From: a virus
Lineage: Duplodnaviria > Heunggongvirae > Uroviricota > Caudoviricetes
Virus record (IMG/VR): IMGVR_UViG_2698536649_000010
DNA length: 9,075 nucleotides
Strand: one strand, 5' to 3'
The notes under the pieces are model-generated. The model ran no database searches, was not told the origin of the DNA, and worked only from the letters and a program-made list of their open reading frames with translations. The position numbers were made by a program, and so were the translations under genes. Shown one piece after another: positions 1,114 to 7,458 of the stretch (positions are counted from its first letter, which is position 1; each line of letters starts with the position of its first letter).

Positions 1114-1332
1114 TTAACGTGGGTATGTAATCATTCTGGCAATGCTTAATGCCGCTGCTTTTTCCAGATTGGTGATATCCTGCTCCAGAGCGGACAGATT
1201 TTCAGCCTGCTTAGCCCTGGCTTCATTGGCCCATTTCAGGTCCTGCACCGCCTTAATTTTCTGGTGCATCCACTCATAAAGTTCATCATCGGTATAGTCT
1301 GGCGCGATGATGACGGGGTCTCGTTTCTGCAT
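1114..1332 (-). CDS. small prophage protein, 72 aa (YdfC-like by size and operon position)
   Basis: ATG at 1332 with strong SD (AAGGAG) 6 nt upstream on the minus strand. The 72-aa length and the position between dicA and dicF match ydfC of the K-12 dicB operon; sequence identity not verified from memory. Confidence 0.6.
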   Translation of the reverse strand: MQKRDPVIIAPDYTDDELYEWMHQKIKAVQDLKWANEARAKQAENLSALEQDITNLEKAAALSIARMITYPR

Positions 1333-1404
1333 GTCGGCTCCTTGTGGTTAGCGTTGCCTGCTTTTTAACCACGTCAGGCGAGGTGGTATCCTCTGAGGGG
1401 TCTG

Positions 1405-1761
1405 TTACTCGAGAGGAAATTGGTTATGAATACAATCAAGTTTTCTTGCCCAGAATGTGGTGGCTAAGTCTTTGACACATCCTTTAAGCCGCAGGGCTCT
1501 GACAGTTTCGCGGGAGCCATCTGCAAAAATTGTGGTCACCTTGTAACTGAAGATGAGTCCTCGCAGTTCGATGACGAAATCGTTGACAATATCTTCGGTG
1601 CACTCACCAGAGACTTTCTGAAGTAAAGGCGCATACCGCTTAGTTACCGCTCTGATAACTCTTACCTGTCCGGCAATGGCGCTGATATCAATATAAAGCG
1701 CCATCGCTGTTTCTTTGCTGATCCCTGGACGCCTTCCATTCTGATGTTTGACTTCGCCCAC
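1405..1761 (-). CDS. hypothetical 118-aa protein, first gene of the leftward dicB-type operon
   Basis: GTG start at 1761 with GAGGA SD upstream on the minus strand; first ORF downstream of the putative operon promoter. Does not correspond to the short ydfA/ydfB of K-12; an internal ATG (MALYIDIS...) is an alternative start. Confidence 0.5.
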   Translation of the reverse strand: MGEVKHQNGRRPGISKETAMALYIDISAIAGQVRVIRAVTKRYAPLLQKVSGECTEDIVNDFVIELRGLIFSYKVTTIFADGSRETVRALRLKGCVKDLATTFWARKLDCIHNQFPLE

Positions 1762-1840
1762 TGAGAAATCCTCTGCTTCCCCTTAACGCCGGGTAGCGGA
1801 ACTGTTTGCTGAGAACACCGTGCGGTGTCTTGATGAGTAG

Positions 1841-1870
1841 AATTTAGAATAGCCTAAGAGTTATGGTCAA
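1841..1870 (-). promoter_or_regulatory. candidate dicB-operon promoter with embedded DicA-type operator
   Basis: On the minus strand: -35 TTGACC (+1865..1870), 18-bp spacer, -10 TAAATT (+1841..1846). The 14-bp palindrome TTAGAATAGCCTAA (+1844..1857) overlaps the -10 and has the same TTAG-N6-CTAA form as the three sites in the dicA/dicC intergenic region. Confidence 0.4.
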
Positions 1871-1967
1871 GCTTTTGTGTAGAAAAACCTAAGCTTCTTG
1901 ATGTAAAAAACACAAGTATTTGAAAGTTTGTGCTTTTTATTACAGAGAGTTGCGAAAAAAAGGGGGG

Positions 1968-2375
1968 TTATTTATTTGCGCTTCTTTTGCGAGCTTTGAG
2001 TAGTTCTTCAAAAAGTTTGTTGAAATTCTCAACTCGAGCACGCATCTCTGACAACAGAGCCTTTTGCTCTGACTCAGGCAGTGCGTCGAACAGTTGAAGC
2101 AACTCTTTTTGATCTTCTGTCAGATTGACTGGCTGATTATCTGGGATCGGTTCGCCTGGTTGCTTATCTTCATCTCCAAAAAGAAGCCAAGTCGGCGAGC
2201 ACTGAAGCGCCTGGCTCAGTGCGAATAATCTCTTCCCCGCTGGCTGTGTTTCATCTCTTTCCCATTGAGAAATTGTTACGTGAGCCACTTTGACCAGCTT
2301 ACCTAATGCGGCCTGAGACAGTTTTAATTTTTTTCGCCTGTATAAGAGGCGAGCACCGAAGGTTTCGTTTTTCAT
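1968..2375 (-). CDS. dicA: DicA-type repressor (XRE-family HTH, cI/C2-like prophage repressor)
   Basis: 135-aa product closely matches recalled E. coli DicA along its length (LFALSQALQCSPTWLLFGDEDKQP, ARVENFNKLFEELLKAR). Divergently arranged with a Cro-like gene. Confidence 0.9.
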   Translation of the reverse strand: MKNETFGARLLYRRKKLKLSQAALGKLVKVAHVTISQWERDETQPAGKRLFALSQALQCSPTWLLFGDEDKQPGEPIPDNQPVNLTEDQKELLQLFDALPESEQKALLSEMRARVENFNKLFEELLKARKRSANK

Positions 2376-2451: not shown

Positions 2452-2679
2452 ATGTTGAAAATTGATGCTATAGCGTTTTTTGGCAGCAAAACAAAGCTTG
2501 CCAATGTCGCAGGAGTTAGGCTGGCAAGCGTTGCTGCATGGGGGGAACTGGTTCCTGAAGGTCGCGCGATGCGCCTGCAAGAGGCATCCGGCGGGGAACT
2601 TCAGTACGACCCCAAAGTTTATGACGAATATCGTAAGGCAAAGCGGGCGGGGCGGTTGAACAATGAAAATCACCACTGA
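2452..2679 (+). CDS. dicC: DicC-type Cro-like regulator
   Basis: 75-aa product matches recalled DicC (GSKTKLA, LVPEGRAMRLQEASGGELQYDPKVY, RAGRLNNENHH); divergent from dicA. Confidence 0.85.
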   Translation: MLKIDAIAFFGSKTKLANVAGVRLASVAAWGELVPEGRAMRLQEASGGELQYDPKVYDEYRKAKRAGRLNNENHH

Positions 2680-5483: not shown

Positions 5484-6056
5484 ATGAAGGTAAAATGCAT
5501 CGGCAGTCTGATTGGTCGTAGTGAGGCGGCGGTCAGGATGAAAGCCCAGGTTAAGGGAATAAGCCTGATTCTGCGGGGTGATTTTCACCAGTCAACAAAA
5601 TATCCGTAGCGCGATAACGGTCAAAAATTATGGCGCTGACACTTTTGTGCCACTGGAGATGACTGTACCTAAGTTCAGGGGAGAAGAACACGTCCGGTGG
5701 GATGGTCGGGCCAGATTTAAAGGGCAGGTCATGGCTCCAGCCTGTACGCTGGCAATGGAGGCTGCCTGGCGGGAAATTGATATGGGAACCACGCCACTCA
5801 GGGATTTACTGCCGGTCCAGAGAATAAATTCCTGTTACGGTTACACCACTGTGATCTTGCAAGTGCAGGAAAGTAGGTCTACACGGTAACGCGAGTGCGT
5901 GTAACTTTTGATGTCATTCCCGTAGAAACACCGGACAAATTTTCGCTGACAGGTCATGCAGAAGGTATAAATCTGCAGATTATGGACAATTACGGATATC
6001 CGGCAAGAGCCGGAAAAAGCATGCCGCCTCTAATTCTCAGTGGAAGATGGACTTGA
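5484..6056 (+). pseudogene. decayed fimbrial major-subunit-like gene remnant (chaperone-usher type)
   Basis: Three successive frames carry fimbrial-like segments: a signal-like MKVKCIGSLIG (from 5484), then GRARFKGQVMAPACTL...INSC (5578..5889; compare FimA GGTVHFKGEVVNAACAV...LNDC), then GINLQIMDNYG (5895..6056; compare FimA GVQILDRTG). At least two frame changes are needed, and the usual C-terminal strand is missing where the AT-rich block begins. Confidence 0.35.
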
Positions 6057-6307
6057 TTATACTCATTGCATTGTCAGAAATAGTTATCCATTAAAGGCTG
6101 GCTATTCCAAACAGGATGTTGATTACAAAAATGTAATCAACATGTAAGGTTTATACTCTTCAATATGCGTATAATTTTCCTTATTTTGTTGACTTTAAAT
6201 AACAAGCTATGCACGAGGTAAAGTCGGATAAGTTTATCTGGATGTAATATATATTATTTGTAGTGTTTATAACTTTATTTCATGATAACCAATAAAAGGA
6301 GTTTTTT
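6057..6307 (+). promoter_or_regulatory. AT-rich upstream region of the binding-protein moron (promoter not resolved)
   Basis: Strongly AT-rich compared with flanking phage genes. Contains a 10-bp inverted repeat GTTGATTACA-AAAA-TGTAATCAAC (6118..6141), a TATAAT hexamer at 6170..6175, TTGACT at 6189..6194, and a strong SD AAGGAG at 6296..6301 before ATG 6308. Confidence 0.35.
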
Positions 6308-7066
6308 ATGAGGAACATAATGGCAGGTTTTTTAATATTCCTGTCTTCTGCTGCTTATGCTGATATCAATCTGTATGGTCCTGGTGGCCCGCATACAGCC
6401 TTGCTTGATGCAGCCAAACTTTATGCCGAAAAAACAGGTATTATAGTGAACGTTCATTACGGCCCACAGAACAAATGGAATGAAGATGCCAAAAAAAATG
6501 CAGATATCTTGTTTGGCGCATCAGAACAATCTGCTCTGGCTATCATTCGGGACCATAAAGACAGCTTCAGTGAAAAAGATATTCAGCCTCTTTATCTGCG
6601 AAAAAGTATTTTACTGGTAAAGAAAGGTAATCCTAAAAATATCCGGAGTATTGACGACCTGACCAGACCTGGGATTGGCGTAATTGTTAATGATGGTGGT
6701 GGTACCAGTAATACATCAGGCACTGGCGTCTGGGAAGATATTGCCGGACGTAAAGGGAATATAGAAACTGTCGCCGCAATCCGAAAAAATATTATTTTAT
6801 ATGCGCCCAATAGCGGAACTGCACGTAAGGCTCTTGAGAATCAGCCTGGAGCAGATGTCTGGATAACCTGGGCTGACTGGGCAGCCAGTAATCCAGAAAT
6901 TGGTGATGTCGTGGAAATAGCGCCAGACTACGTGATATGGCGTGATATGAACATTACAGTACGTCAGGATGCAAATGATGAAACCCGTCGATTTGCAGAA
7001 TGGCTACAAACCGATGAAGCGGCGCCTGCATTCAAAAAATATGGCTGGACCAGGAAAGGCACTTGA
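6308..7066 (+). CDS. secreted periplasmic substrate-binding protein, ModA-like fold; orphan (no transporter genes adjacent)
   Basis: 252-aa product with N-terminal signal peptide (MRNIMAGFLIFLSSAAYA then DINLYG). Resembles recalled E. coli ModA at several points (ADILFGASEQSA versus ADLFISADQKW; C-terminal RFAEWLQTDEAAPAFKKYGW versus AFYDYLKGPQAAEIFKRYGF). AT-rich codon usage. Confidence 0.8.
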   Translation: MRNIMAGFLIFLSSAAYADINLYGPGGPHTALLDAAKLYAEKTGIIVNVHYGPQNKWNEDAKKNADILFGASEQSALAIIRDHKDSFSEKDIQPLYLRKSILLVKKGNPKNIRSIDDLTRPGIGVIVNDGGGTSNTSGTGVWEDIAGRKGNIETVAAIRKNIILYAPNSGTARKALENQPGADVWITWADWAASNPEIGDVVEIAPDYVIWRDMNITVRQDANDETRRFAEWLQTDEAAPAFKKYGWTRKGT

Positions 7067-7249: not shown

Positions 7250-7302
7250 GCTGCGGGTGCTTGAGGCTATCTGCCTCGGGCATGAACACCAACGGCAGAT
7301 AG

Positions 7303-7353
7303 ATAAAAGCCCCACCCGACTATAAATCGAAGTGAGGCCCCTATATGCTCGTC
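7303..7353 (-). ncRNA. candidate Sok-like antisense RNA
   Basis: Minus-strand hairpin (7309..7339, stem with two G-U pairs) followed by a U-run (7308..7303). Possible promoter on the minus strand: -35 TTGACC (+7383..7388), 17-bp spacer, weak -10 CAATCT (+7360..7365). It is antisense to the hok leader around the mok start, where Sok acts in known hok/sok loci. Confidence 0.3.
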
Positions 7354-7401
7354 ACATATAGATTGCCTCTTACGGACCGAAAGGTCAAGGAGAAGCAGGC
7401 T

Positions 7402-7458
7402 ATGAAGCAGCAAAAGGCGATGTTAAAAGGCGGGGGAGAAATCCCTCGCCACCTCTGA
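7402..7458 (+). pseudogene. hok: truncated hok toxin ORF (18 codons; HokD-like N-terminus, transmembrane segment absent)
   Basis: Encodes MKQQKAMLKGGGEIPRHL then stop. The first 8 residues match recalled HokD/RelF (MKQQKAMLIALIVICLTV...); the hydrophobic helix and C-terminal domain are missing in all three frames before the terminator, implying an internal deletion of roughly 100 to 130 bp. Confidence 0.55.

Follow-up and report, generated by a model that had tools for sequence, protein, structure and literature searches.

A conserved zinc-ribbon gene and the open reading frame opposite it in the first-gene slot of a dicB-type prophage operon

The dicB operon of the Qin prophage in Escherichia coli K-12 has two short genes running in the operon direction, ydfA and ydfB, directly after a DicA-controlled leader and before ydfC. 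In the stretch of prophage DNA analyzed here (9,075 nucleotides (nt) of the Caudoviricetes record IMGVR_UViG_2698536649_000010, hereafter the window), the same slot is filled by a cassette of a different kind: one operon-direction open reading frame (ORF) of 118 codons on the minus strand, without sequence similarity to ydfA/ydfB, and a nested antisense gene on the plus strand, with its own promoter-like element, that encodes a four-cysteine zinc ribbon. The zinc-ribbon gene is conserved and under selection but is interrupted by a nonsense codon in the window. We propose, at a probability of roughly 0.5, that the ORF opposite it is a genuine gene as well.

Each strand of the cassette corresponds to a described family. 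The plus-strand gene belongs to the ECs_2282 family (NF047912), whose type member, ECs_2282 of the Sakai prophage Sp12, lies in the same slot within the same order of repressor, cassette, ydfC and dicB. The window frame scores above the cut-off of that family and displays its CxxC...CxxCGH pattern; unlike the type member it is a pseudogene (TAA at codon 14), and literature searches found no description of an overlap with a second gene for the family. The minus-strand ORF matches PHROG 21318, a phage family of 99 amino acids (aa), over the full length of the profile (residues 20-118 against positions 1-99 of 99, E 8.6e-67), but this family is the same ORF collected from phage records and adds no functional or independent evidence. 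As to the arrangement itself, the closest parallels are laoB, ano, asa and pop of E. coli O157:H7, long ORFs antisense to annotated genes for which the same question of shadow or real gene was raised. Those cases rest on RNA-seq and ribosome profiling and concern mostly young ORFs, whereas the window pair is known from sequence alone, is kept across prophages of Escherichia, Klebsiella, Citrobacter, Enterobacter and Serratia, and has the operon-direction partner as its longer member. Autonomous morons such as sieB are embedded in lambdoid early regions; like them, the zinc-ribbon gene is small, lies by the immunity region against the operon direction and has its own promoter-like element and a hairpin past its stop. 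There is, however, no sequence relation between these morons and the window cassette, and PADLOC returned no match for the minus-strand ORF.

The swapped cassette and its plus-strand gene

Alignment of the window with K-12 Qin showed a conserved leader of about 60 nt that runs to the ribosome-binding site of the first gene, after which identity returns at that of ydfC; the minus-strand ORF therefore occupies exactly the ydfA+ydfB slot (Table 1). This bears out an earlier note on this DNA, made without database searches, which held that a 118-aa gene behind the DicA-controlled promoter had replaced ydfA and ydfB: the locus is a cassette swap, and a fusion or mis-started version of the two K-12 genes finds no support, as BLASTP gave no alignment to the K-12 proteins YdfA (DUF1391) or YdfB at E <= 100 and Pfam gave no match. 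The position of the ORF as the first one after a DicA-controlled promoter also agrees with the sequence, in which two operator-like elements at the promoter recur in the dicA/dicC intergenic region (1841-1857 with 2377-2393, and 1879-1893 with 2401-2415), consistent with the same repressor controlling the early-left promoter. The segment is widespread, with copies in at least 936 of the 5,426 complete E. coli genomes; for 520 of those 936, identity of the best copy to the window reaches 99% or more.

Six-frame translation revealed what the earlier note had not seen, a 66-codon plus-strand ORF for a four-cysteine zinc ribbon that covers some 200 nt of the 357-nt minus-strand ORF. The locus is thus not simply a new promoter-proximal gene, since a conserved and curated gene lies on the opposite strand. 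With its stop masked, the window frame scores 55.7 bits against NF047912, for which the curated cut-off is 37 bits and two intact relatives score 59.3 and 51.2 bits; the protein also matches phrog_4852, a separate phage family (E 2.5e-9), and the sequence sources name its relatives "ECs_2282 family putative zinc-binding protein". The window frame and every homologue seen have the cysteines C8, C11, C33 and C36 in a CxxC...CxxCG arrangement, and the start, the stop and the length of 62-66 aa are kept in all relatives. The protein is acidic, with an isoelectric point (pI) of about 4.2.

In the window this frame reads MNTIKFSCPECGG, a premature stop, and then VFDTSFKPQGSDSFAGAICKNCGHLVTEDESSQFDDEIVDNIFGALTRDFLK. 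The stop is a TAA at codon 14 where intact E. coli copies have GAA; the same base change exchanges Phe for Leu in the minus-strand frame. A stop at this place removes the first zinc knuckle from any product, and on inspection no downstream in-frame ATG or GTG was seen in the window frame that would preserve both knuckles. Haplotypes with the nonsense allele make up 27 of 138 copies; outside them, every group retains an uninterrupted zinc-ribbon frame. A stop at another site (TED*SS, the asterisk marking the stop) cuts the gene short in one further haplotype. Annotation follows the state of this codon. Where the zinc-ribbon gene is intact (L022 and L024 among the relatives, which are denoted here by L numbers, and Sakai Sp12), RefSeq annotates that gene and leaves the minus strand empty; the 99-aa form of the minus-strand ORF is called solely where the nonsense allele is present. 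The nonsense codon leaves the minus-strand ORF as the sole intact frame in the window, which is why gene callers report it.

The zinc-ribbon gene appears to bear the marks of a self-contained transcription unit, as far as sequence signals can tell. A putative promoter of the TTAACC/TTCACC-16-TATCCT type, a hexamer pair scored in five of ten sequences (the window, L013, L017, L145 and L147), precedes it; a TATC-type -10 hexamer with the CCAC..GTGG repeat is visible in L019, L021 and L148, and L004 and L007 share only TATCCT. The element scores 8 of 12, under the threshold of the promoter scan, and the flanks outside it are unrelated across the compared lineages. The only plus-strand match that the promoter scan did return lies inside the start of the zinc-ribbon gene and was rejected. 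A ribosome-binding motif serves the ATG of the window gene, and a Klebsiella relative has AGGAGG 6 nt before the corresponding ATG. About 50 nt past the stop lies a conserved hairpin, with a 7-bp stem that 11 of 12 lineages retain; seven lineages have G-U at one of its pairs, so that the hairpin pairs only in RNA of the zinc-ribbon sense. With its 13-nt loop it was not flagged by a simple terminator scan. In L007 (4082-4739), just upstream of the cassette, a plus-strand call of 110 aa overlaps a minus-strand call of 163 aa (phrog_3983); this second antisense pair adjoins a copy of the promoter-like element with the CCAC..GTGG inverted repeat.

Selection within and beyond the overlap

In the overlap the codon boundaries are common to both frames, with position 1 facing position 3 and position 2 facing position 2. 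Codon-level comparison of relatives revealed that synonymous divergence in codons 64-108 of the minus-strand ORF is three to five times below that of its N-terminal part, because the opposite strand carries the zinc-ribbon ORF. Pairwise omega (the ratio of nonsynonymous to synonymous divergence) within the E. coli clade is 0.00-0.12 in the zinc-ribbon frame, and the polymorphisms of 33 haplotypes are 28 synonymous to 24 nonsynonymous in that frame, where 24% synonymous changes are expected (P = 5e-6). In L019, two minus-strand substitutions, Trp to Leu and Ala to Thr, fall in the first zinc knuckle and leave both of its cysteines in place (CPEC to CQKC), the Ala-to-Thr change being a synonymous Cys codon change on the other strand. 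The omega values, the polymorphism counts and the complementarity between the knuckles and the minus-strand motifs (see below) therefore establish that the zinc-ribbon gene is real and drives conservation within the overlap. Most of the sequence conservation of the minus-strand ORF is the mirror image of this gene.

The converse, in which the zinc-ribbon frame is the shadow of a minus-strand ORF that alone is a real gene, is close to refuted by the same observations. It could appeal to the greater length of the minus-strand ORF, its operon direction and ribosome-binding site, and the gene callers that choose it in many metagenome assemblies; but a shadow would hardly keep four cysteines, a start and a stop in every homologue seen, concentrate changes at its own synonymous sites, spare both first-knuckle cysteines in L019, match two independent profiles and be furnished with its own promoter-like element and ribosome-binding site.

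Whether the minus-strand ORF is a gene too is a more balanced matter. The first possibility is that only the zinc-ribbon gene is real and that the 118- or 99-codon frame is its non-functional mirror, in a phase that tends to stay open. The ORF would then have been annotated only since a nonsense mutation hid the true gene, nothing on the minus strand of 1405-1761 would be functional, and the cassette would be a decaying moron. The RefSeq practice of annotating the zinc-ribbon gene by itself whenever it is intact fits this explanation, to which we give serious weight although somewhat short of even odds. The second possibility, which we favor at the probability of about 0.5 given above, is that both frames are genuine genes and form a nested antisense pair, of which the zinc-ribbon member is dead in the window; the operon-direction member would be expressed from the DicA-controlled early transcript and the zinc-ribbon member from its own promoter. 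The minus-strand ORF would accordingly be translated and functional.

The signals that favor a nested pair lie mainly in codons 21-45 of the minus-strand ORF, the sole part of its 99-aa core beyond the zinc-ribbon gene. Diversity at codon positions 1, 2 and 3 is 0.36, 0.34 and 0.56 in these 75 nt, a three-base periodicity of the coding type, with a permutation P of 0.0002-0.0004 over 13 lineages and of 0.013-0.017 over the five lineages that zinc-ribbon similarity also retrieved. The ratio of nonsynonymous to synonymous polymorphism (pN/pS) in the same segment is 0.55 in the minus-strand frame compared with 0.91 and 1.09 in the other two, and the plus-strand frames contain stops. The hairpin past the zinc-ribbon stop, being specific to the zinc-ribbon strand, explains part of this conservation without a minus-strand gene; however, the periodicity persists in codons 30-45, outside both the overlap and the hairpin (P = 0.0004), and in L146 the hairpin is destroyed and the minus-strand peptide kept.

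Several further features speak against a mere mirror frame. In about 10 of 11 lineages with unrelated upstream DNA, a ribosome-binding motif recurs 5-10 nt before an in-frame ATG or GTG. The ORF is parallel to the early operon in every context seen, namely after DicA-type repressors (sometimes with a toxin-antitoxin pair between), after cI-type S24 repressors and, having moved to the other side of the switch, after cro in Klebsiella; in L146 and L148 it starts 12 nt past the preceding gene. The frame is open in 50 of 50 distinct haplotypes, and its indels are in-frame only (3 nt in L019 and 12 nt in L021). Its core is also predicted to adopt a confident fold, described in the next section.

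A considerable body of observations weighs against a functional minus-strand gene. Functional long antisense overlaps are rare, hence the prior is low, and no paper mentioning either gene turned up in literature searches by locus tag and accession. Within the overlap the minus-strand frame looks neutral: its pairwise omega is 0.8-1.8 in the E. coli clade, its polymorphisms in the 33 haplotypes are 13 synonymous to 39 nonsynonymous with 27% synonymous expected, and each of the six differences between L022 and L024 alters the minus-strand protein and leaves the zinc-ribbon protein unchanged. Its best-conserved motifs, VTT..ADGS and FWAR, come from the exact complement of the DNA that encodes the two zinc knuckles. 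Beyond the overlap, the core part is not significantly constrained within E. coli (12 synonymous to 22 nonsynonymous, P = 0.19) and the 19-codon extension between the two possible starts evolves neutrally (9 to 23); the polymorphism counts in the mirror frame are neutral throughout. The O157:H7 Xuzhou21-type haplotype group (L023, 10 copies) retains the 99-aa frame only. Two tests inside the overlap are of little help to the pair. A parsimony tree has 134 changes that leave the zinc-ribbon protein unaltered; 6.7 minus-strand stops are expected from them and none is observed (P = 0.001), but in the subset of lineages found independently of the ORF two are observed against 4.0 expected (P = 0.23); since significance is reached only with lineages found through the ORF itself, we down-weighted this test. 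An OLGenie-style dNN/dNS of 0.46 was set aside, as second codon positions are over-represented among NN sites and codon position thus confounds the estimate. In favor of the pair, the parsimony tree has an excess of double-synonymous changes (13 against 7.3 expected, P = 0.03). The only minus-strand selection signals free of ascertainment and codon-position confounds are those outside the overlap, that is, the periodicity.

The Xuzhou21-type allele matches the window over 370 rather than 371 nt, as would fit the loss of 1 nt from the 19-codon extension, and also has the zinc-ribbon nonsense codon.

The minus-strand protein and its prophage setting

The earlier note described a 118-aa gene at 1405-1761. 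The ORF is there, preceded by an AGAGGA motif that is kept in relatives, and its GTG start is an ATG in L011; the length of 118 aa is doubtful, since RefSeq and PHROG 21318 both use the 99-aa form from the internal ATG although some phage records use the longer one, and its status as a gene is insecure for the reasons given above. Across lineages the protein has 93-131 aa, and it is basic (pI about 9). The note could not place it, and that judgment stands: scans of the 118-aa ORF against Pfam, NCBIfam and PADLOC gave no usable match, homology searches led to no family of known function but only to PHROG 21318, and the predicted structure is an orphan fold. Deep protein searches found homologues in only about 45 clusters, all from Enterobacteriaceae prophages; one protein search returned seven representatives below 1e-10 among 1.84 billion, and a profile search of genome contigs with the ORF profile found one locus. 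PDB sequence searches with the profiles of both families, minus-strand and zinc-ribbon, were empty. AlphaFold2 modeled the 99-aa core from a 27-sequence alignment at a predicted local distance difference test (pLDDT) score of 87.2, as three helices with a beta-hairpin between helices 2 and 3; the 118-aa form with 15 sequences was modeled poorly (pLDDT 59). No fold relatives of the core model were found, the Foldseek matches to winged-helix proteins having template modeling (TM) scores of just 0.2-0.3. Inspection of the sequences showed no signal peptide or transmembrane segment in either protein.

A small basic protein encoded by the first ORF past the repressor on the early-left side, as it is in most contexts, recalls N of lambda, and in Klebsiella the position after cro is that of cII. 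However, an N-like role in antitermination, or that of some other early regulator (CII- or CIII-like) at the head of the early-left operon, seems highly improbable for the minus-strand ORF. Pfam, NCBIfam and PHROGs gave no match to a regulator family; the protein is without an arginine-rich N-terminal motif and its model is compact (pLDDT 87) rather than disordered; there is no helix-turn-helix, and the winged-helix TM-scores are as low as stated. Moreover, the ORF occupies both the N-like and the cII-like slot in different prophages, so neither role fits it specifically.

The window prophage is lambdoid and integrated beside ompW, with Sakai Sp9 and the "PPompW" phages as its counterparts among annotated relatives. 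To the right of the DicA/DicC pair lie a YdaT-like gene and replication genes; to the left are ydfC and then a gene for a 135-aa protein (PHROG 1363), and in annotated relatives dicB, a DUF1482 gene, an exonuclease gene, xis and int follow immediately beyond the window limit. The order is that of a Qin-type dicB operon, with DicA and DicC, ydfC, a DicF-like RNA and, just left of the window in L001, dicB. The DicF-like small RNA maps to about 89-138 on the minus strand of the window from L001 4790-4839; its score of 43.5 bits is below the Rfam gathering score of 48, hence a scan of the window at the gathering threshold missed it and an E-value scan of L001 found it. The leader has a perfect hairpin just downstream of the predicted transcription start, and its 3' half, downstream of the hairpin, is conserved regardless of which first gene follows. 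Several relatives have an inserted toxin-antitoxin pair (HigB/HigA-like or PaaA2/ParE) that separates the repressor gene from the early promoter and cassette; in these relatives the cassette travels with the promoter and leader and not with the repressor gene.

Other parts of the window gave observations of their own. The PHROG 1363 gene (135 aa, 684-1091 on the minus strand) is overlapped at its 3' end by a 77-aa plus-strand ORF (473-706) that RefSeq lists as a hypothetical protein. The closest listed O157:H7 relative, L001, has an IS1203 insertion in the replication-gene region (8690-9902) that is not present in the window (at about 3950). Further right, the prophage carries a Paa/AdfO adhesin gene at 6308-7066 (+), just upstream of which, at about 5614-6147 (+), is a fimbrial-protein pseudogene (with a frameshift and an internal stop, according to RefSeq for a relative), and a sok antitoxin RNA (RF01794, 103.9 bits) is found at 7255-7404 (+), where relatives annotate a hok/gef-type 'phage maintenance protein' gene.

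Table 1. Coordinates of the cassette and its surroundings (window positions unless a relative is named).
Feature	Position	Strand	Remarks
118-codon ORF	1405..1761	-	GTG 1761 to TAA 1405; same direction as the early-left operon
99-aa core form	1405..1704	-	ATG 1704; RefSeq WP_001240336.1; ECs_5719 in Sakai prophage Sp9
Codons 21-45 of the minus-strand ORF	1627..1701	-	75 nt; sole core part beyond the zinc-ribbon gene
Ribosome-binding motif AGAGGA	1769..1774	-	7 nt upstream of GTG 1761; kept in relatives
Zinc-ribbon gene, ECs_2282 family	1426..1626	+	pseudogene in the window; NF047912 match
Nonsense codon TAA	1465..1467	+	codon 14 of the zinc-ribbon gene; GAA in intact E. coli copies
Zinc-ribbon promoter-like element	1365..1392	+	TTAACC-16-TATCCT; inverted repeat in spacer, ACCAC 1368-1372 / GTGGT 1383-1387
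Zinc-ribbon ribosome-binding motif GAGAGGAAA	1411..1419	+	serves ATG 1426
Conserved hairpin ATGGCGCT / AGCGCCAT	1676..1704	+	about 50 nt past the zinc-ribbon stop; contains ATG 1704 of the minus-strand ORF
Leader common with the K-12 dicB operon	1777..1835	-	includes the perfect hairpin ACACCGCACGGTGT at 1828-1815
Early-left promoter	1841..1897	-	sigma-70-like TTGACC-18-TAAATT; -35 at 1870-1865, -10 at 1846-1841
ydfC	1114..1332	-	next operon gene; downstream edge of the swapped cassette
DicA-type repressor gene	1968..2375	-	NF007257, 241.6 bits
DicC-type gene	2452-2679	+	DicC model, 167.6 bits
Toxin-antitoxin insertions	L013 3057-3721; L015 2031-2509; L024 2128-2607; L026 6052-6523		in relatives

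Proposed expression of the pair and its implications

If both frames are genes, the slot between the DicA-controlled leader and ydfC would be a compact cassette read on both strands. The plus strand would provide the promoter-like element, the ribosome-binding site, the acidic 66-aa zinc-ribbon protein and the hairpin past its stop, and the minus strand a basic protein of 93-131 aa whose gene completely spans the zinc-ribbon gene. Lying in the early-operon direction, the minus-strand ORF can only be made from the early transcript after the repressor is lifted; the two genes being complementary, their expression should therefore exclude each other. The zinc-ribbon gene would be expressed during repression of the early promoter, and upon derepression the minus-strand protein would be made, with convergent transcription and double-stranded RNA silencing the zinc-ribbon gene. 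Mutually exclusive expression through convergent transcription is what the geometry of the locus would entail. The stronger proposal, that the cassette is a conserved nested antisense pair acting as a strand switch with both proteins functional, and that the Sp9-type allele of enterohemorrhagic E. coli (EHEC) is a natural knockout of one partner with the other intact, is tentative, and we think it rather less probable than not. An early lytic or host-modulating role of the minus-strand ORF, as the earlier note suggested, is at most a conjecture from its position, and from position as well we would guess that both proteins are small, cytoplasmic, protein-binding accessory factors in phage-host or phage-phage conflict.

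For annotation, two mutually exclusive calls circulate in RefSeq for the same DNA, the zinc-ribbon gene where it is intact and a 99-aa hypothetical protein where it is broken, and comparisons of dicB operons across prophages are misleading unless both strands are considered. Should the minus-strand ORF prove a shadow, the locus would be a clean cautionary case of a pseudogenized small gene supplanted in annotation by its mirror frame. Should both frames be functional, the pair would be one of those long antisense overlaps of bacteria or phages that have better evolutionary support, spanning several enterobacterial genera; it would sit beside the lysis-lysogeny switch, and natural knockouts of a single partner would already be at hand in EHEC.

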